Assembly: GCA_041736305.1 (NCBI GenBank)
Contig: JBGSTX010000011.1
Coordinates: forward strand, 1-18,445
Length of the DNA stretch: 18,445 nucleotides
Direction: 5' to 3'
DNA from: Oligoflexus sp.
GTDB taxonomy: Bacteria > Bdellovibrionota_B > Oligoflexia > Oligoflexales > Oligoflexaceae
Made by a program: the position numbers and the translations under genes. Under the pieces are notes generated by a model, which made no database searches, was not told the DNA's origin, and saw nothing but the letters and a program-made list of their open reading frames with translations. Shown here one piece after another: positions 2,926 to 16,450 of this stretch (the first letter of the stretch is position 1; each line of letters starts with the position of its first letter).

Positions 2926-3549
2926 ATGAAATCCATCGCGATCTACTATAGAGTATCGACCGATAAACAAGACCTTGAAAGTCAAAAGCATACTGTTGAA
3001 GCCTGGCTCGAGCGGCTCGATCCGAGCAAACGGCCCAAGCGCGTGTTGATTTTCGAAGATGAGGGCCTCAGCGGAACCGACCGCACGCGACCTGGGTATC
3101 TCGCCCTACTCGAAGCCGCCTATGCCCAAAAGGTCGACACCATAGTGGTTTACCGACTCGATCGATTTAGCCGCAATGCCTCCGAGGCCATCCAGGTTCT
3201 GCTCTCACTCGACGAGGTGGGGGTTGGTTTTATATCGGTGACGCAGCCGGTCCTGAATCTAGGGCATGAGAATCCCTTTCGCCGAACCATGCTCGCTGCG
3301 TTTGCCGAGATAGCGGAGATTGAAAGACAGACTATAGTCACGAGGGTGAAAGCCGGCTTGGAGGCGGCGCGGCAGCGAGGTGTTAAACTCGGCAAGCCCA
3401 GCAAAGATAGTGAAGAGCTGCGCGCTCAGATCCGTGAGCGGCGGGCTGCTGGTGCAAGCGTCAGAGCTATCGCCAGCGAACTTGATTTGAGCTACGGCCT
3501 GATTCAGCGGCTAGCCAGTGAGATGGAAAAGGCCAGTAGCGGAGCTTAA
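2926..3549 (+). CDS. Small serine recombinase (resolvase/invertase family) with C-terminal HTH
   Basis: YYRVSTDKQ with catalytic Ser, EGLSG, RPG, VYRLDRFSRN, ERQTIVTRVKAGLEAARQRGVKLGKP, and HTH SVRAIASELDLSYGLI. GAGGAG RBS upstream. Confidence 0.95.
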   Translation: MKSIAIYYRVSTDKQDLESQKHTVEAWLERLDPSKRPKRVLIFEDEGLSGTDRTRPGYLALLEAAYAQKVDTIVVYRLDRFSRNASEAIQVLLSLDEVGVGFISVTQPVLNLGHENPFRRTMLAAFAEIAEIERQTIVTRVKAGLEAARQRGVKLGKPSKDSEELRAQIRERRAAGASVRAIASELDLSYGLIQRLASEMEKASSGA

Positions 3550-4094
3550 AAAAGGAGGACCGGCGCGATCGCGGCTTCTGGCTCGAGACCCGAAATGTGC
3601 CGACGAACCACTTCCCGCTCGGATGCCATGGTGGTCACCTGCATCAGGGCTTTGCCGAAGTTCTGCAGGTCTTCTTCAGACGCCGGCTTCGCCCCAAAGG
3701 CTTGCCTTTGTTGTGCCCAGACCTCTAGCATCCGGCTCATATTATCGAAATTCTGCCGCATTCTATCTTGGAACTGCAAAGATTCGATGATGGGCCCGAT
3801 GAGCGAGTTGGTTTCCTCATGCTCGCTGGTGAGCGTTACCAAACTCTTGATCAGCTCGGCAGCGGGAGCTTTCTTCTTGTCGAAAGTCTGCTGCTCTATG
3901 GCTTTCCGCAGACCCTGCAGAACCTTGAGGCTCTCCTGCGAGATAGCGGTCACGCGCGTAGCATTATCGAGAAGGAGTCCAACAGTTTGGCTAACGCGCC
4001 CCGTTGCCTGCTCAGATTCTATTGCGCACCACTTCAAACTAGCCGCGGTGAAAAGTCGCAAGCGTTCGGTCAATTGCTCTTGAGACATGGTCAT
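3546..4094 (-). CDS. CheZ-like / MCP C-terminal-like helical chemotaxis-associated protein
   Basis: IIESLQFQDRMRQ matches the FQD-x3-Q pattern. TTMASERE motif and C-terminal ...VLLF. GAGG RBS. Stop overlaps the recombinase stop (TTAA). Confidence 0.65.
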   Translation of the reverse strand: MTMSQEQLTERLRLFTAASLKWCAIESEQATGRVSQTVGLLLDNATRVTAISQESLKVLQGLRKAIEQQTFDKKKAPAAELIKSLVTLTSEHEETNSLIGPIIESLQFQDRMRQNFDNMSRMLEVWAQQRQAFGAKPASEEDLQNFGKALMQVTTMASEREVVRRHISGLEPEAAIAPVLLF

Positions 4095-4117: not shown

Positions 4118-4786
4118 TTAGAACTCGATGAAAACGCTGCGCTGGTCCTGGCCTTCAGGGGCCTTCTCGTGCAGAACATGCTCGTAGAAAGCAGCCGTTT
4201 CCTCCACCGAAGTCATACCAGCCGCCATCGTGCGGGCAGCATCTGTATAGTCGCGAGGTGGAGGATTCTGATGGACGAGTTCTTTGACTTTGTTCCAGAC
4301 GCTGAATATATGCTGAAGTCTCTGATTCACAGCGTCCTCAAACTGCATCGAAGCCAGCGCCGGAATCAGCTGTTCGCGGATACCGTTGTCGAGAGTAATC
4401 AATCCCTCGAGCTGCTTTTGCACACCAGCCAGGCTCAAGCGCTGGCTTTTCATTTCATCGTTTTTGTCGATTTCAATATCAGTGCTGATTTCTTTACCTG
4501 CAGCGATTTGTGTCTGGAGATAGCTGACCATGTCGTCGACGGCAGCATTGACTTCATCTTTTTTGGACTGGATAGTACCTTGATTGAAATACATGTCATA
4601 GAACTGGCGCAGGGTGTCGAAGGCATCGCGCTCTAGATAGTTCGAGGAAAGAGCCATCGTCGAGCTCGTGCAGGCTACCGCACCAGCTAGAGCTTCTTTA
4701 CCGAGCTGCTCAAAGATTGAGAGAAAAGTCTGGTCGAAGTCTTCAAGAGTATAGGTCGCACGGAGCTTCTGAGCTGGACTGGACAT
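4118..4786 (-). CDS. CheZ-like / MCP C-terminal-like helical protein (paralog of 3546-4094)
   Basis: ALASMQFEDAVNQRLQHI (D-x3-Q), MTSVEE, C-terminal VFIEF. AGGA RBS. 23-nt gap to the next gene. Confidence 0.65.
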   Translation of the reverse strand: MSSPAQKLRATYTLEDFDQTFLSIFEQLGKEALAGAVACTSSTMALSSNYLERDAFDTLRQFYDMYFNQGTIQSKKDEVNAAVDDMVSYLQTQIAAGKEISTDIEIDKNDEMKSQRLSLAGVQKQLEGLITLDNGIREQLIPALASMQFEDAVNQRLQHIFSVWNKVKELVHQNPPPRDYTDAARTMAAGMTSVEETAAFYEHVLHEKAPEGQDQRSVFIEF

Positions 4787-4958
4787 GATGGTCTATTCCT
4801 GCGTTGTAGATATCGCGGCGCGTCATTGATATAGGATATCACAAAACATTATTTCTGAGAAAAACTCGGCCGGAGGACAGCAGCGGGCCTGAGCGAGGCT
4901 CTAGAAATTGACTGAAATAAAATATTTTTGTAGGAATTTCCGCAGACTAAAAAATTCC

Positions 4959-4988
4959 GGCTCAAGTAAAAAGAGCTCTTACCGATTA
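4959..4988 (+). promoter_or_regulatory. Putative sigma28 (FliA)-type promoter
   Basis: GGC-TCAA(4962-4965)-N15-ACCGATTA(4981-4988), which is canonical sigma28 spacing. Confidence 0.6.
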
Positions 4989-4994
4989 AATATA

Positions 4995-5097
4995 TGATTG
5001 TGGACAGCAGGCTAGCTTGGTGTCCTGATGCTAGAAGATAACTGATACCGTTTCAGTCCCCCTCCGTCTCTGTCCTTTGGGACAGAGATTTTTTTTT
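4995..5097 (+). ncRNA. Candidate ~100-nt small RNA
   Basis: Bounded by the sigma28-like promoter and a + strand intrinsic terminator, while both flanking genes are on the - strand. Hairpins GGACA..TGTCC and ACTGA..TCAGT. TCCCCCTCC at 5057-5065. Confidence 0.6.
5066..5097 (+). terminator. Rho-independent terminator (+ orientation)
   Basis: GTCTCTGTCC-TTTG-GGACAGAGAT stem running into a 9-T tract (5089-5097). The - strand has no U-tract after the stem. Confidence 0.85.
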
Positions 5098-5115
5098 GCC
5101 GAGGTCGCAGCAGTT

Positions 5116-6027
5116 TCAGTATCTTGCTTCGCCTAGCTGGCCCATCAGATAGGCCACCCATTCGTCGTTGGGGTCAGCTTCTTGCAGCCCCTGGAGCATC
5201 CCGCGGGCCTCCTCTGTCTGCCCCCTCTCCATCAAAAGACTGGCCATACGGATCTTGGCTGCCCGTAGTTGAGCCGGCTTATAAGGACCATCGATGACGG
5301 CCGCAAATTCCTCTAGAGCTTCATCGCCTCGGCCAGCCGACCACATAGATTCGGCCAGGGTCTCCCGCACGTCGTAAGCCTGGTATCCCGCTTCGTAGAC
5401 CGTGCGATGCAGGACTTCGGCAGCCTCGACCGGGCGGTTGAGCTCTAAGAGGATAGACCCAACCCCAAAACTTACATAAGGACTGTCGTTGGGCAGAGAA
5501 CGCATAAAGTTCAGTCCCTCTTCCCAGCTGCGGCCGTCCTGATAGATCCGCAAGAGTTCGTGCACCACTACTTCGTTCTGGGTATTAATCGTAAGAGCCT
5601 GCTCAAGGTAGGGTCTAGCCGCGGCGCTGTCCTGCTTATCGAGCATTTGTATCATGGCCATTTCAATCAGGGCAGCTTCGCTCTGGGGATTTTGCTTCAG
5701 GTACGCAGTCAAAACCTTTTCGGCCTCTGACCAGCGATTCTGGTCGACTAGGGCGCGGGCATTGAGGACAGACTCTGAGGCAGCGGCTCCGGAATCAGAA
5801 GCTCGGGTGCGCGAGCGATTCATTGGGGAAGAGGTGCCTGTAGGATTCGGGGCAGCTTCGGGACTGGCTTTTTTTGCCTGAGGCAGCGGGCTCGGCTGCT
5901 GCCACCAAGCATCGGCTTTGGGATCGCCTGCAGATAATTTGAGGACAACTCCTGCGATAATCAGGAGGATGATGAGGATGCCCGTCGAACGGAAGAGGTC
6001 CGAACTAGCTTTTAACTTTGGTATCAT
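5116..6027 (-). CDS. Membrane-anchored tetratricopeptide repeat protein
   Basis: N-terminal TM GILIILLIIAGVVL and a Pro/Ser linker. TPR helices such as WSEAEKVLTAYLKQNPQS, AAARPYLEQALTINTQN and TEEARGMLQGLQEADPND. AGGAG RBS. Confidence 0.85.
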   Translation of the reverse strand: MIPKLKASSDLFRSTGILIILLIIAGVVLKLSAGDPKADAWWQQPSPLPQAKKASPEAAPNPTGTSSPMNRSRTRASDSGAAASESVLNARALVDQNRWSEAEKVLTAYLKQNPQSEAALIEMAMIQMLDKQDSAAARPYLEQALTINTQNEVVVHELLRIYQDGRSWEEGLNFMRSLPNDSPYVSFGVGSILLELNRPVEAAEVLHRTVYEAGYQAYDVRETLAESMWSAGRGDEALEEFAAVIDGPYKPAQLRAAKIRMASLLMERGQTEEARGMLQGLQEADPNDEWVAYLMGQLGEARY

Positions 6028-9116: not shown

Positions 9117-10997
9117 TCAATGCAGTCCATTCAAGGATTTTTGTCTCGTCCAGCTCACCGAACCTGGCCAGTAGGCGAGCACCGTGCTGTCGGTCATGAG
9201 GCGCTCGAGCGTCGTTACGGCTTCGAGTCCGCGCACCGGTGCTTTGAAGATGCCCAAGCTAGCACCGCCCTCAATCTCGCTTACACATTCCCACATTTTG
9301 TCTTCGACCAGGCAGTCGAGCAAATTCCTAGCCTTCGGCCTAAATCGCTTAACAGTATAGAGTTTTTGCGAGTCGAGCTTAGCCAATTCTTTAGCCGCTT
9401 GCATCGCTTCCTTGAGTCCGCCGAGCCGATCGACTAGACCCAGCTTTTGCGCTTCAGCTCCGGTGTAGACGCGTCCTTCGGCAATTTCGAAGACGCGCTG
9501 TGGCGGCTGCTTTCTACCTTCAGCCACCTTGTTCACGAAGGTGTCGTAGACTTCCTTGATCGATTCGCCGAGTAGAGCCTTGTCTTCGGCAGTGCTCGGG
9601 GTTCCGAAGTTAAGATAGTTTTTCCGGTCCGAGCCCGTGATGACATGAAAATGGACCCCCCACTTCTCGCCGACCTGCAGGCCCTTGGGTATGGCGCCGA
9701 CGACCCCGATCGAGCCGGTAATCGTCGTCGGCTCGGCGATGATAAGACTGGCGGGAGCTGAAATGTAATAGCCACCCGAAGCGGCGACCGAGCCCATAGA
9801 AACCACGACGGGCTTGACGGCTACTAGTTTTTTAACTTCATCCCAGATCAGATCGGAGGCCAGAGCCGAACCACCAGGGCTGTCGACCCGCAGGACGACG
9901 GCTTTGATCTTGGCATCGGCTTTGGCCCACTGAAGCTGCTCTATCAGACGCTCAGGAGTGATGACGCCACCGCCGGCACCACCAGAGCCCATCACGATTT
10001 CTCCCGTCGCTTCGATGAGACCAAGGCTTTGATCATCGCCGCTGTACTGGGCGGTATCGATGGAATCGGAACCGCTCAGATAATGGTCATCGTCGACAAA
10101 GTCCTTCGCTTGCGCCTCTTTTTTCAGCTCTTCTTCCCAATCGGAAAGGTAGCCGATGCGGTCAACCAGCCCTTGGGCCAGAGCTTGCTGGCTCGTGAAA
10201 AGCGAGCGTCGTAGCCACTGAGCTACCTCTTCGGGAGTCTTCTTTCGACCCGCGGCTATCGAGGCCACCAGTGATTGCCGGAGCGATCCTTCTAAGGACT
10301 GATACATCTCCGTAGTTTCAGTCGAGGGTGCGTCTTGCACGAATGCTTCCATGGCTGCCTTGTATTTCCCGGCTTTTACCACTTCTAGTTGGACACCCAG
10401 CTTTTCCAAAGCTGAACCGAAGTAGGTCAGCTGCAGCGAGGGACCCGGAATGGTCAAGCCACTGACAGGCGCAAGGTTAAGTTTGGTAGCCGCTGAACCG
10501 AGGAAGTAGAACGAGCTGTCCCCTTCATTCAAGTGGACGTAGAGAGGCTTGTTGCTGGCCACATACTGCTCGAGCGAGCGGCGCAGTGAGCTCAGCGTGC
10601 TCAAATCCGCCGAACTATTCTCCACATCGATCAGCACGCCTTTTACTCTGGCATCGGCAGCGGCACGACGCAGCACCATCTGCACATCATCGACTAAAAT
10701 CGGCAGATTATCGCTGAAGAGTCGGCTCAGGAGGCGACTCCTATCGTCGATGCTCTCGATGGAAAGGGGGCGATCGAGCTTGATGCGGACGATGACATCT
10801 TCTAGCGGTACGCTCGCCTTCGGTCCGCGCTCGACGCTAATGAGGCTTTCCCCATCGAAGTGCTTGTAGAAGAAAATTCCGGCCAGCACGCCGAGAATGG
10901 TTATACCGAGTCCTAAAAGGGCAAAATAACCTGTCAGGACCATAAAAATACTGCGCAATAAGCGCATGAAAAAGCCTCTTTGACGTGTTTCCGACAT
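9117..10997 (-). CDS. sppA: Signal peptide peptidase SppA (protease IV, long two-domain S49 type)
   Basis: N-terminal TM, GKYKAAME, RVDSPGGSALASD, SMGSVAASGGY, TGSIGV, GRVYTG..A..LGLVD. The ATG at 10997 (GGAG upstream) is preferred to the TTG at 11057. Confidence 0.95.
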   Translation of the reverse strand: MSETRQRGFFMRLLRSIFMVLTGYFALLGLGITILGVLAGIFFYKHFDGESLISVERGPKASVPLEDVIVRIKLDRPLSIESIDDRSRLLSRLFSDNLPILVDDVQMVLRRAAADARVKGVLIDVENSSADLSTLSSLRRSLEQYVASNKPLYVHLNEGDSSFYFLGSAATKLNLAPVSGLTIPGPSLQLTYFGSALEKLGVQLEVVKAGKYKAAMEAFVQDAPSTETTEMYQSLEGSLRQSLVASIAAGRKKTPEEVAQWLRRSLFTSQQALAQGLVDRIGYLSDWEEELKKEAQAKDFVDDDHYLSGSDSIDTAQYSGDDQSLGLIEATGEIVMGSGGAGGGVITPERLIEQLQWAKADAKIKAVVLRVDSPGGSALASDLIWDEVKKLVAVKPVVVSMGSVAASGGYYISAPASLIIAEPTTITGSIGVVGAIPKGLQVGEKWGVHFHVITGSDRKNYLNFGTPSTAEDKALLGESIKEVYDTFVNKVAEGRKQPPQRVFEIAEGRVYTGAEAQKLGLVDRLGGLKEAMQAAKELAKLDSQKLYTVKRFRPKARNLLDCLVEDKMWECVSEIEGGASLGIFKAPVRGLEAVTTLERLMTDSTVLAYWPGSVSWTRQKSLNGLH

Positions 10998-11159
10998 GAG
11001 TGTGTTCCGACTCCAGAAAGGGTTAAGGACAGCCTCAGTGTAGCCGTGTTTGCGCAAAAAAAAAATTATTTCGCAGGGTCACAGGCTCGAGTCTTGCGGA
11101 TCACTAAGTGGCTCGATACATTAAATTCTCGGTAGGCACTGTCAAAGAGGGAGGAGTCC

Positions 11160-14005: not shown

Positions 14006-14185
14006 CTCAGTAGCCGCTTCATTTCTCTTTTGCCAATCAGCGAAGACTGCGGGAAAAACTTCGTCGCGGAGCCTCGCCGCCTAAGTTCCCTGGCCGAATT
14101 TTGCTTGGCTGAAAACCGCAGCAGGCGTAGCCTGTTAATGAGAGAAGGCCCGGGTTTAAGTGAACCAGCAGCAAAAGGGGAAATC

Positions 14186-14605
14186 ATGAAATTCCTTTAC
14201 TCCTTCCGCCATATGGACAGCTCCAACGCTCTCATGTACTATTTTGAAGAAAAAATGAGCACAGGCATGGAGGCCCTGATCCAGACGTCTAGCCCGATTA
14301 ACGTGACCTTCATCGTAGAAAACGGCGAGCACAAGATTCATGTCGAGCTGCTTGCACGCAACCACGCTCTTATCGAGGTAACGGAAGCATCGGAAGAAAT
14401 GCACAAGACGATCGACCTAAGCGTCGATACGATTACCAAGATGCTCACGCGGCAGAAGAGTAAACAAACCCACCATCATGTGAAAATGGATCGTTTCGAG
14501 GCTGCATTGGCCGCTTCTACTGTGGCGGCAGCTGATGTGGCTGAAGATGAGACAGATTTCGAGGGCGAGGAAGACTTTCTAAGGCCGCTCCCTCCTACTC
14601 CCTGA
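14186..14605 (+). CDS. hpf: Ribosome hibernation factor HPF/RaiA-family protein (divergent) with acidic tail
   Basis: FRHMDSSNALMYYFEEKM, beta strands, and EEMHKTIDLSVDTITKMLTRQKSK match the HPF/RaiA layout. ATG 14186 with AAGGGG RBS; the ORF track starts at 14030. Confidence 0.8.
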   Translation: MKFLYSFRHMDSSNALMYYFEEKMSTGMEALIQTSSPINVTFIVENGEHKIHVELLARNHALIEVTEASEEMHKTIDLSVDTITKMLTRQKSKQTHHHVKMDRFEAALAASTVAAADVAEDETDFEGEEDFLRPLPPTP

Positions 14606-14674: not shown

Positions 14675-16450
14675 TCACTTAATTTGTTTCAATTTGATGC
14701 AGAAGCGAGCTCCGCTTTGGTAGGAACTATCCAGTTCAATAAGCCCGCCATGATCGCGTATAATCTCGCGCGATATATAGAGCCCGAGTCCTGTGCCCTT
14801 GGTCTTACCGAAAGTGGCAAAAGGCTGGAATAGGGTCTTCGCCAGTTCGCTCGAAACTCCAGGTCCATCATCCGTTATGGCTATCTCCATCCAGACCGCA
14901 TCGATCGCCCGCGTGGCGATGTTGATTTTGCCGCCCTCTTTGAGAATGTCCAAAGCGTTGTTGGTGAGATTAAAGATGACACGCATGAGCTTCTGGCGAT
15001 CCACCCTGACCTGGCCCTGATAGGCGAAGTCCGTCGTCAGTTCGACTTTGTGCCTCTGCGTTTCGAGTTCGAGCATCGAAGCGATCTCGCTCAAGACCTC
15101 GTTAAGCGGCATCACCTCGAAGCGGAAGCGCTTCTCCCCACGTGCGACGCTCAGGAGCTCTTCGACCATGGTTATGCAGCGATTGGCCTGATTCCTGATA
15201 ATGTTGCCGATGCGCTCCATTTGGACGTCCGACATTTGCTCCCAGTTACCCAAGAGCTCTGCGCAGCCGATGATAGCCGATATGGGATTTTTCAGGTCGT
15301 GGATGATCGTGCTCGCCAGCTGACCTATAGCAGCTAGATTTTTCGAACGTTCTTTTTCTTCTACCAGTTGTCGCCGCATCAGCAAAGAGATGATCTGCAT
15401 ACCGATCACCTGCAGAAAGGCCAGATCTTCGTAAACGAAGCCGCTGGGCTTATTAAAGATCTCAAAGATGCCCTGAACCGCTTCTTTCCCAGGCTCACCG
15501 ACTTGGTTCAGCGGAAAAGCCATTAGATTATCAATTCGGAAATCCAGCTCCCGTTCGAGCAAGTCCAAGGAACTGTCAGGCTCGTTGAGCGTATTGATGA
15601 TGATGGGCTTACCACCCTGCAGAACCTGGATCAGACGCTCGCTGTCGAGGCGTTGCTCGGTCAGGTGCAGAACCTGACTTTGGGCATCGATGCGGGCCGC
15701 ATAGGTTTCCCAGCTTTGGCTGCCGGTCTGTATCATCAGACAGCCCGCCTCGGCACCGATTGAACGGACCGCACGGCGGATGACTCTACTTATAAAGTCG
15801 TAGAGAGTTGCCGAGTCGTTGACGTACTGCTCGAGCTCACGGACGACCTCGAGCTGGTCTATTTTTTGTTTGAGACGAATCTCTGTGTCGGACAGATCGC
15901 GAATGACGCGGGCTTTTTCTTGGTAGAGATAAGCCGATTCAATGGCAACGGCCGCCTGCGCGGCGAAGGCATTGGAGAAGCTCTCGTCGGATGGATCAAA
16001 ACTGCCAGTGACTTTGTTCAATAGTTGCAAGCAACCAATCGTGCGCCCTTCGACGTTGGCGAGAGGCACGCAGAGGATGTTGTGGGTCCTATAGCCGGTA
16101 GCCTTGTCGATATCGGAATTGAACATACTGGTCGTGTAGGCATCGTCGATTCTGATGGTCTTGCCACTGTCGATACAGCGGCCAGCGACTCCAGCTCCGC
16201 GTGGGAAGCGAATGATTTGATTTTCACCCAACTGTACCTTCGACCAGATTTCCTGTCTTTGGGGATCGAGAAGAAAAATGCTGCAGCGATCGGCCTGCAA
16301 GGCTTTCCGTCCTTGATCGGCAATGTAGACGAGCAGGTTATCCAGATTCTTCTCGAGGCCCATGAAACGGCAGACGTCGAGGAGCATGAGCAGCTGATCG
16401 AGACGGGGAACTTCGGGGAGCGCTTCCTGCAGCTGAATCGCATTAGACAT
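14675..16450 (-). CDS. Cytoplasmic GAF-GAF sensor histidine kinase (HisKA + HATPase)
   Basis: GAF1 has ADRCSIFL...FNSDIDKATGYRTHNILCVPL...QLLNK (PDE-type GAF). A second GAF ends EIFNKPSGF. H-box IIHDLKNP, N-box NLTNNA, DDGPG, FQPF, GTGLGL. No TM. Confidence 0.95.
   Translation of the reverse strand: MSNAIQLQEALPEVPRLDQLLMLLDVCRFMGLEKNLDNLLVYIADQGRKALQADRCSIFLLDPQRQEIWSKVQLGENQIIRFPRGAGVAGRCIDSGKTIRIDDAYTTSMFNSDIDKATGYRTHNILCVPLANVEGRTIGCLQLLNKVTGSFDPSDESFSNAFAAQAAVAIESAYLYQEKARVIRDLSDTEIRLKQKIDQLEVVRELEQYVNDSATLYDFISRVIRRAVRSIGAEAGCLMIQTGSQSWETYAARIDAQSQVLHLTEQRLDSERLIQVLQGGKPIIINTLNEPDSSLDLLERELDFRIDNLMAFPLNQVGEPGKEAVQGIFEIFNKPSGFVYEDLAFLQVIGMQIISLLMRRQLVEEKERSKNLAAIGQLASTIIHDLKNPISAIIGCAELLGNWEQMSDVQMERIGNIIRNQANRCITMVEELLSVARGEKRFRFEVMPLNEVLSEIASMLELETQRHKVELTTDFAYQGQVRVDRQKLMRVIFNLTNNALDILKEGGKINIATRAIDAVWMEIAITDDGPGVSSELAKTLFQPFATFGKTKGTGLGLYISREIIRDHGGLIELDSSYQSGARFCIKLKQIK

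Follow-up and report, generated by a model that had tools for sequence, protein, structure and literature searches.

A spacer between two minus-strand genes of Oligoflexus sp. very probably harbours, at positions 4962-5097 of the plus strand, a genuine gene for a small non-coding RNA (sRNA), as judged from its sequence and from comparisons with related genomes. On balance, we favour a reading in which this sRNA gene goes together with a promoter of the sigma28 class. The predicted gene, its strand, its structure, the class of its promoter and an exposed C-rich stretch are conserved. The sRNA would represent a new family specific to Oligoflexaceae (Bdellovibrionota), of an already known kind of sRNA.

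Genetic environment of the putative sRNA gene

The window, i.e. the whole stretch of DNA that was analysed, is an entire contig of 18,445 bases from a metagenome-assembled genome of 5.02 Mb (392 contigs, 92.7% complete), hereafter called the host genome (G000). The putative sRNA unit lies inside a 329-base spacer (Table 1). Both neighbouring genes are found on the minus strand, as a preliminary description of this DNA had indicated, and the unit is on the plus strand, so that it is convergent with the TPR gene and divergent from the 222-aa gene. Direct reading of the sequence placed the two promoter boxes, an ATG codon, two hairpins, the C-stretch and the terminator at the very positions given for them in that description. 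The spacer contains only two plus-strand ORFs of at least 20 aa, at 4717-4788 and 4908-4997. None ends near the terminator, which agrees with the earlier statement that no long plus-strand ORF could make use of it.

Table 1. Positions of the predicted elements of the sRNA unit and of the two flanking genes in the window
Feature	Positions	Strand	Description
222-aa gene	4118..4786	-	Divergent neighbour; conserved helical protein, function unassigned
-35 element of sigma28-type promoter, TCAAGTAA	4962..4969	+	TCAA at 4962-4965; found with the genome's own matrix
-10 element of sigma28-type promoter, ACCGATTA	4981..4988	+	15 bases after TCAA
Predicted transcription start	4994..4997	+	From promoter geometry, ~6-9 nt past the -10 element
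Hairpin 1 (5' stem-loop)	5002..5025	+	GGACA 5002-5006, N14, TGTCC 5021-5025; predicted fold
Linker	5026..5040	+	GTCCTGAT and an AAGAA-like stretch in common with the nearest relative, G009 (by eye)
Hairpin 2	5041..5057	+	ACTGA 5041-5045, N7, TCAGT 5053-5057; abuts the C-rich stretch; aligned to helix 2 of the family
Unpaired C-rich stretch, candidate seed	5058..5065	+	DNA CCCCCTCC, RNA CCCCCUCC; UCCCCUC in relatives
Intrinsic terminator	5066..5097	+	10-bp stem, 4-base loop, run of 9 T
TPR protein gene	5116..6027	-	Convergent neighbour, Pfam assignment; last gene of a DUF58-VWA-VWA-TPR (Bat-like) operon

The 222-aa gene is present in 20 of the 21 genomes of the family. Its product has no Pfam or NCBIfam family, and a profile search against the PDB gave no match. 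The AlphaFold model is poor (pLDDT 60.4, pTM 0.36), and a Foldseek search with it returned no match at E <= 0.001. We also looked in the spacers for a sigma28-type promoter of the 222-aa gene on its own strand and found none that is conserved. A conserved -10-like block was noticed by eye near the start of this gene in the syntenic spacers.

Sequence features and predicted fold of the unit

The terminator stem is composed of GTCTCTGTCC (5066-5075) and GGACAGAGAT (5080-5089) separated by a TTTG loop, and the run of 9 T occupies 5089-5097, its first T belonging to the stem. A terminator scan called this hairpin on the plus strand only (10 pairs, including 5 G-C, a loop of 4 and the tail TTTTTTTTGC). 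It ranks among the strongest in the window, in which the scan detected 32 terminator-like sites versus 18.7 +/- 4.5 in shuffled sequences. When the hairpin is read on the minus strand, an A-run precedes it and GGAGGGGG follows it, and it is therefore devoid of a U-tail on that strand. The proposal that the terminator works in the plus direction only is borne out by this analysis.

Folding of the 4994-5097 RNA predicts three hairpins and a single-stranded C-stretch (-33.9 kcal/mol, z -3.0; none of 200 shuffles as good), but this folding energy cannot choose the strand, as the opposite strand folds equally (z -3.45).

A leaderless 15-aa ORF had initially been put forward as an alternative or additional product of the unit. 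The frame is open for 15 codons, from the ATG at 4994-4996 to the TAA at 5039-5041. Nevertheless, a counterpart of this ORF was found in none of ten relatives, in which the longest closed frame that starts with ATG, if any, is unrelated. The ATG is located at or upstream of the predicted transcription start and is not preceded by a ribosome-binding site, and a strain variant alters codon 3. A small-protein gene or a dual-function RNA is thus extremely improbable, and we abandoned the proposal.

Conservation in Oligoflexaceae

A plain DNA search at the BLAST level with the spacer as the query found nothing in 60 related genomes; homology became visible only once the syntenic spacers had been extracted. 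The TPR and 222-aa genes are adjacent in 13 relatives. In eight of these 13 syntenic spacers we identified an antisense element in the same orientation as that of the window, and two more loci were fetched using the 222-aa gene alone. Altogether, the element, 83 to 95 nt in length, is carried by 10 related Oligoflexaceae genomes and by three metagenome contigs. In the window and in all ten relatives it sits between the TPR and 222-aa orthologues, antisense to both.

The copies share a near-invariant core composed of hairpin 2 followed by UUGGUCCCCUC, in addition to the 5' hairpin and the terminator with its T-run. GTCCCC and TC are invariant across the sRNA family. Across four genera, hairpin 2 and the C-stretch change very little; the flanking spacer, by contrast, cannot be aligned. 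A core of 20 bases is identical in nine of the ten relatives. Its exact sequence was found in only seven records of the species-genome collection, which include Oligoflexus tunisiensis Shr3, Oligoflexus sp., Pseudobacteriovorax sp. and an Oligoflexaceae MAG, and in three metagenome contigs, all from the same clades.

Of 131 genomes sampled from the phylum, 10 yielded a single match each to a covariance model; all ten belong to the family of the window, and the 109 phylum genomes outside Oligoflexaceae gave none. With the first model, a run at the level of the order yielded a 23-bit match in one of 74 genomes outside the family. Within the family, 11 of 21 genomes have no model match; the syntenic spacer was read in five of them, and the RNA is absent. 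These five relatives, of the same genus, retain the gene pair, with a shorter spacer, an ordinary terminator and no sRNA element. In the spacers of genomes G016, G019 and G020 and in the five RNA-less spacers, the best model match reached 12.8 bits (E 0.066). Weak matches of 21-28 bits in six other genomes (G010, G004, G001, G002, G021 and G024) were discarded, as on reading they look like terminators only.

Covariation and strand

Covariation was tested on ten distinct relatives, aligned to the model with all three helices. In these sequences, 90.4% of the cells are paired, compared with 29-55% when the partners are slid, and compensatory changes on both sides occur in 8 of 25 pairs, a number reached by none of 500 shuffles, but these figures lean toward structure because the sample is small (ten sequences) and the model itself guided the alignment. 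The compensatory pairs are distributed between helix 1 (three of eight) and the terminator helix (five of ten). Helix 2 is invariant and is therefore neither backed nor contradicted by covariation.

G-U pairs are present in six of the ten sequences at one position of helix 1, and in five of ten at one position of the terminator helix. In every copy a T-run follows the last hairpin on the sRNA strand. Since both the G-U pairs and the T-runs fit that strand only, the sRNA strand is the plus strand of the window. Together, synteny in ten genomes, covariation and the strand-specific G-U pairs argue for an independent non-coding unit on the plus strand, as first proposed. When the 11 sequences were folded singly, each of them formed three hairpins and had an unpaired stretch of 8-15 nt holding the C-run. 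Exposure of the C-rich stretch, which had been noted for the window, is thus predicted throughout the family.

A predicted promoter of the sigma28 class

The preliminary description had assigned a sigma28-type promoter to the unit. We collected candidate sites of this type with the strict pattern T[ACT]AA-N15-[AG]CCGA[TA], which has 219 matches in the host genome, 102 of them in the 15% of the genome outside crude ORF calls. A matrix was built from 56 intergenic sites with a downstream gene; its consensus is TAAAGTTT-N11-GCCGATAA, which we take to be the textbook sigma28 consensus. Sites were assigned to the class on the basis of a -35 element TAAA(GTTT) and a -10 element GCCGATAA separated by some 15 bases (11 when counted between the 8-mers), and the window's site belongs to it. 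With the host genome's own matrix, the promoter of the unit, TCAAGTAA-N11-ACCGATTA, scores 17.0 bits and ranks 88 among 10,023,958 genome positions; as the training set of the matrix was itself made up of pattern-selected intergenic sites, this rank involves some circularity. Sixty-eight of the 88 sites at that score level are outside ORFs. Pfam analysis of the genes downstream of 20 sites identified, among others, PilB, two PilZ proteins, an MCP, CheA, an EAL protein, a cNMP-binding protein and a Ser/Thr kinase, and nine of the 20 have no family.

In all 11 copies of the element, the best sigma28-like site within the 190 nt that end at the RNA 3' end lies directly before hairpin 1. The gap between promoter and hairpin is 8-10 nt in the relatives (by eye) and 13 nt in the window. 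Two bases of the -35 box, its T and second A, are the same in all 11 copies. Within the CCGA of the -10 box, one C never varies, and each of the remaining three bases is conserved in at least 90% of copies, whereas the sequence separating the two boxes shows no conservation. Scores range from 10.4 to 17.3 bits in seven of the 11 copies, and among random 190-nt segments 4.6% reach 10 bits and about 10% reach 8 bits. The window's promoter has the highest score of the 11, 17.3 bits.

The four copies of the O. tunisiensis clade read TTAAG-N16-CCGA, and their promoters score only 5.8-6.9 bits with the matrix of the host genome. When whole spacers are considered, other antisense sites outscore the sRNA promoter in three of these four. 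No antisense site above 6.1 bits was found in the five RNA-less syntenic spacers. The recurrence of the site near hairpin 1 in every copy, with conserved boxes and a non-conserved spacer, is consistent with the initial assignment.

The host genome codes for FliA, the sigma28 factor (TIGR02479, 288.8 bits for a cut-off of 189.6), and it contains eight flagellin-family genes. FliA and flagellins are also encoded in the five relatives that were checked. A loose sigma28 pattern fits only one of the eight flagellin-family genes of the host genome; the flagellin promoters, if they are of the sigma28 type, are thus weaker matches than that of the sRNA. Based on these sequence data, transcription of the sRNA is probably driven by FliA.

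The label 'motility-phase', which the preliminary description had attached to the sRNA, is uncertain: cultures of O. tunisiensis Shr3, the type strain of the genus, are reported to be non-motile (available text of PMC4179278), and promoters of this class in Bdellovibrio serve a programme extending well beyond flagella (available text of PMC3627812). The genome of O. tunisiensis Shr3 codes for FliA and for eight flagellin-family proteins.

The window's copy as a member of the family

The copy found in the window is the most diverged of the family. Its hairpin 1 is longer than in the relatives, it has an extra linker and a different hairpin 2, and CCCCCUCC replaces UCCCCUC. A model built without the window picks out 5021-5094 on the plus strand with 21.2 bits (E 2.5e-5 over 18 kb; the runner-up in the window has 8.9 bits), a weak match considering that the relatives score 40-95 bits and that part of the 21 bits comes from the terminator. 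The genome-wide model runs did not report the window's copy; such runs score a small fraction of their first-look candidates, in one case 150 of about 2,766. Its nearest relative, G009 (46.7 bits), is intermediate by eye, with the linker and the -35 and -10 boxes of the window and the C-stretch of the family. We consider the window's copy a diverged orthologue, because position, orientation, promoter type and layout are all shared.

This degree of divergence, which affects hairpin 1 (by an insertion), hairpin 2 and the C-stretch, and the frequency of the strict promoter pattern in the genome might alternatively suggest that the unit is unexpressed in the host. It would then be a decaying remnant, or its last hairpin would only stabilize the 3' end of the TPR mRNA, the promoter match being fortuitous. 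Yet the window has the highest-scoring promoter of the family, one of the strongest terminators of the contig, and the layout of three hairpins with an exposed C-run. A 97%-identical strain variant from a public run shows two differences in the 136-nt unit versus eight in the remaining 193 nt, which are small numbers, and its differences spare the promoter boxes, hairpin 2, the C-stretch and the terminator. We therefore regard an unexpressed relic as very unlikely. No RNA run is listed among the public runs that hold the sequence of the unit; the four runs that were inspected consist of contigs, and the one presumed to be RNA covers only 4724-4875, outside the sRNA.

Predicted mode of action and search for targets

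RNA polymerase with FliA would start transcription at around 4995 and stop at the intrinsic terminator at around 5095. This would yield a transcript about 100 nt long, in which two hairpins precede the unpaired C-rich stretch and the terminator hairpin follows it. Its likeliest mode of action would be Hfq-free base-pairing in trans, the (U)CCCC(C)UC(C) stretch pairing with G-rich, Shine-Dalgarno-like sites of mRNAs. Ribosome binding would thereby be blocked while the FliA programme runs. Repression by occlusion of Shine-Dalgarno sequences is a plausible but tentative proposal, which we would put at somewhat less than an even chance.

Several features are pertinent to this proposal. The conserved unpaired stretch is located between two stable hairpins and is complementary to GAGGGG(A), or in the window to GGAGGGGG. 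By eye, the complement of the seed overlaps the GGAGG-type ribosome-binding sites ahead of the flagellin genes of the host genome. Searches for Hfq found none in the host genome and in five relatives, and they detected it in control genomes. This absence fits the class of Hfq-independent RNAs with C-rich motifs described in Staphylococcus aureus (available text of PMC2790875). As the layout of the unit matches that of the S. aureus Rsa class, we favour pairing in trans at G-rich start sites.

Targets in the host genome were sought by a duplex-energy scan over the start regions of 4,202 called genes, followed by a search for 10-mers complementary to the seed. These scans yielded three start-proximal candidates, two without a Pfam family and one ABC ATPase. 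The best of them, GGAGGGGGACT abutting an ATG (C231:14999), was rejected, as the complementarity is absent in five orthologues. In five relatives, 13-mers complementary to the seed with at most one mismatch number 14, 11, 14, 9 and 5, for 13, 11, 5, 6 and 2 with a reversed control; they are no commoner than the control in two of these genomes and only modestly commoner in three. Two start-proximal sites were found in the relatives, and the one that was followed up retains only GAGGGGG in its G008 orthologue. GAGGGGG itself occurs twice in the window, which is not above chance. Altogether, the scans of the host genome and of five relatives identified no conserved target partner.

The main rival to pairing in trans is a role in cis, as an antisense RNA or a convergent-transcription element that pairs or collides with read-through from the Bat-like operon and insulates or tunes both neighbours. 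The outcome of the target scans is consistent with such a role, as is the location of the element at the same gene pair in all 11 genomes with the RNA. Furthermore, 18 nt separate the end of the sRNA terminator from the TPR stop codon, and because no U-tail follows the hairpin on the gene strand, transcripts of the operon may read through the sRNA region in its entirety. However, a purely positional element needs no fixed sequence, yet hairpin 2 and the C-stretch hardly vary from one genus to another. The five relatives with the gene pair and an ordinary terminator do without an antisense unit, and the conserved -10-like block suggests that the 222-aa gene has a proximal promoter of its own outside the sRNA. 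We consider a cis-antisense function unlikely.

The same scans and the invariance of the core could also be accounted for by a protein-binding or otherwise non-pairing RNA, in which hairpin 2 and the C-stretch are a recognition site for a protein. Consistent with this idea, they form an invariant block without covariation, with both sequence and shape fixed, and no conserved mRNA partner emerged. The host genome codes for CsrA. Nevertheless, GGA motifs are confined by eye to the terminator stems, unlike in a CsrA sponge, and the succession of a 5' hairpin, an exposed C-rich box and a terminator is that of known Shine-Dalgarno-pairing RNAs (available text of PMC2790875). A protein-binding role therefore appears rather improbable to us.

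Beyond the preferred reading of the unit as a trans-acting sRNA, it may be speculated, with considerable doubt, that in Oligoflexaceae FliA drives a broad dispersal or 'attack-like' programme, of which the RNA provides the post-transcriptional arm. The RNA would then silence growth-phase mRNAs independently of Hfq by means of its single C-box, with a seed remodelled in the lineage of the window. Under this broader proposal, the replacement of UCCCCUC and of hairpin 2 would imply that the set of targets has been rewired.

Relationship with known sRNAs

Searches of Rfam 15 with the window gave no match at the gathering score, including to RsaE and to the c-di-GMP riboswitches; the best sub-threshold match reached 20 bits versus the required 44 and was driven by the terminator. 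The loci of five relatives gave no Rfam 15 match at E <= 1. We found no study of sRNAs in Oligoflexaceae or Oligoflexia by title or abstract. The absence of Rfam matches and of literature agrees with the earlier view that the sRNA is undescribed.

FliA-dependent sRNAs of Escherichia coli reportedly include UhpU, MotR, FliX and FlgO. In addition to a description of four E. coli sRNAs under FliA, which are presented as UTR-derived (available text of PMC10578931), FliA-dependent sRNAs have been reported for Campylobacter, namely CJnc170/FlmR of C. jejuni (available text of PMC11187230) and CjNC1 and CjNC4 (available text of PMC4626219). The Oligoflexaceae sRNA resembles them by its control by the late flagellar sigma factor, predicted in our case, whereby a regulator is made alongside the motility programme. 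It has no sequence relation to them, as judged from Rfam and the family models, and unlike the four UTR-derived E. coli sRNAs (PMC10578931) it would have a promoter and a terminator of its own and stand alone as an intergenic gene. Another difference is that its hosts have no detectable Hfq.

Closer to Oligoflexaceae, the attack-phase promoters of Bdellovibrio bacteriovorus, which belongs to the same phylum, have the consensus TTAAG-N16-CCGATA, found for 92 of 140 of them, and this FliA-type class drives a programme far wider than flagella (available text of PMC3627812). Eight attack-phase sRNAs, APsRNA1-7 and merRNA, are described in the same text. The similarities thus reside in the promoter class, shared within one phylum, and in a broad programme that includes sRNAs (PMC3627812). 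According to that text, merRNA has 445 nt and contains a c-di-GMP riboswitch, and the B. bacteriovorus sRNAs have no homologues outside that species; in contrast with merRNA, the Oligoflexaceae unit matches no riboswitch family, the two being compared by description.

In S. aureus, RsaE, other Rsa RNAs and RNAIII bind Shine-Dalgarno sequences through an unpaired UCCC box and prevent formation of the initiation complex, and expression of the Rsa RNAs is Hfq-independent (available text of PMC2790875). Like the Oligoflexaceae sRNA, they have a hairpin on the 5' side and a terminator on the 3' side, and their UCCC-type motif is conserved and unpaired (PMC2790875). Nevertheless, the lineages are unrelated, there is no Rfam match to RsaE, the Oligoflexaceae sRNA has a single C-box rather than several, and pairing and repression are predicted in its case.

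The sRNA family described here is useful for annotation and for the choice of experiments, and it will not surprise specialists. As an orthologue is present in the cultivable type strain O. tunisiensis Shr3, the sRNA gene can be tested there. This copy is located at G006:C1:3642222-3642309 on the minus strand, G006 being equated with Shr3 through matching coordinates. The genome data suggest that the broad FliA promoter class of Bdellovibrio extends to the sister class Oligoflexia, in which such sites are found ahead of genes for pili, chemotaxis and c-di-GMP, and one site is predicted to drive a non-coding RNA. C-box sRNAs are known mostly from Firmicutes, and one in a lineage in which Hfq was not detected would extend the class with a Gram-negative case.

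A conserved protein family encoded next to the predicted sRNA

Two adjacent family-less genes lie between the serine resolvase gene and the predicted plus-strand sRNA, and long ORFs are also present on the opposite strand within both of them (see table). For the gene coding for the 222-residue protein, the divergent neighbour of the sRNA, the minus-strand reading was confirmed by the homologues present in 28 of 60 relatives. Other genes of the window, for which the table gives three stretches, code among others for an S30AE-type ribosome hibernation factor, a GAF histidine kinase, an S49 peptidase, a pentapeptide-repeat protein and an SLT transglycosylase; all of them appear ordinary.

Coordinates of the genes and ORFs in the window
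Feature	Position	Strand	Remark
Serine resolvase gene	2926-3549	+	
Family-less predicted gene	3546-4094	-	adjoins the serine resolvase gene region
ORF opposite the preceding gene	3595-4083	+	
Family-less gene (222 aa)	4118-4786	-	homologues in relatives
ORF opposite the preceding gene	4169-4636	+	
Further gene	9117-11057	-	
Further gene	14030-14605	+	
Further gene	14675-16450	-	

The 222-residue protein and its homologues at loci L015 to L023 of the relatives form one conserved, all-helical family, for which there is no Pfam or NCBIfam model. They share an invariant block, SMQ.(E/Q)DA..QR, in which Asp151 and Gln155 are strictly conserved, and a likewise invariant C-terminal RS.F.EF motif. Among the named clusters of the protein atlas, a CheZ-like one lies closest, with a value of 0.81; the atlas itself describes this level as often due to chance. 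Both the spacing of the D-x-x-x-Q residues and the peptide at the C-terminus are reminiscent of CheZ. A PDB profile search, an AlphaFold model (pLDDT 60) and a Foldseek search gave no support to this likeness.

Sequence elements and variants of the intergenic region

We identified other conserved elements in the relatives' spacers that correspond to the one harbouring the sRNA. In the O. tunisiensis clade (spacers L025, L026, L027 and L029), a second conserved block is found between the sRNA promoter and the gene of the 222-residue family. It consists of a palindrome, perfect or nearly so (GCTTGAGGG.CCTCAAG), with TTTC after it. Closer to the start of that gene, the same spacers contain a conserved AT-rich block that looks like a -10 box in the orientation of the gene.

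In a genus devoid of the sRNA family, the equivalent spacer (L105, G019:C123:7250-8000, antisense orientation) contains another kind of candidate antisense unit. Read by eye, this unit comprises a short hairpin with a T-run, preceded at a distance of approximately 75 nt by a -10-like ACCGAATT, and it lacks a C-rich stretch. In the genome of another relative, four copies of GTGGGGACCAAGG, all on one strand and spaced by 54 to 100 bases (G014:C18:45941-46194), suggest a repeat array.

Public sequencing runs revealed two strain variants. The first, in run X2, is 97% identical across the whole stretch 4600-5500 of the window, with 28 differences in 889 bases. The second, in run X4, covers 4993-5140 with six differences, one of which disrupts the terminal base pair of the sRNA's hairpin 2.

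Regulatory context of the genome

No match to Hfq (PF17209) was found in six Oligoflexaceae genomes (G000, which is that of the window, and G002, G006, G014, G018 and G021), while the same search detected it in the control genomes. CsrA is encoded on contig C291, adjoining flagellar genes.

A genome-wide pattern search of G000 revealed a large class of sigma28-type promoters, with 219 strict matches, 102 of them outside called ORFs. The genes downstream code for PilB, PilZ, MCP, CheA, EAL, cNMP-binding and Ser/Thr kinase proteins, together with many family-less products. The abundance of these sites and the kinds of genes that follow them suggest, at the sequence level, a broad FliA programme. 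Such a programme would resemble that reported in Bdellovibrio, going by the FliA-type attack-phase promoter class described for B. bacteriovorus (PMC3627812).
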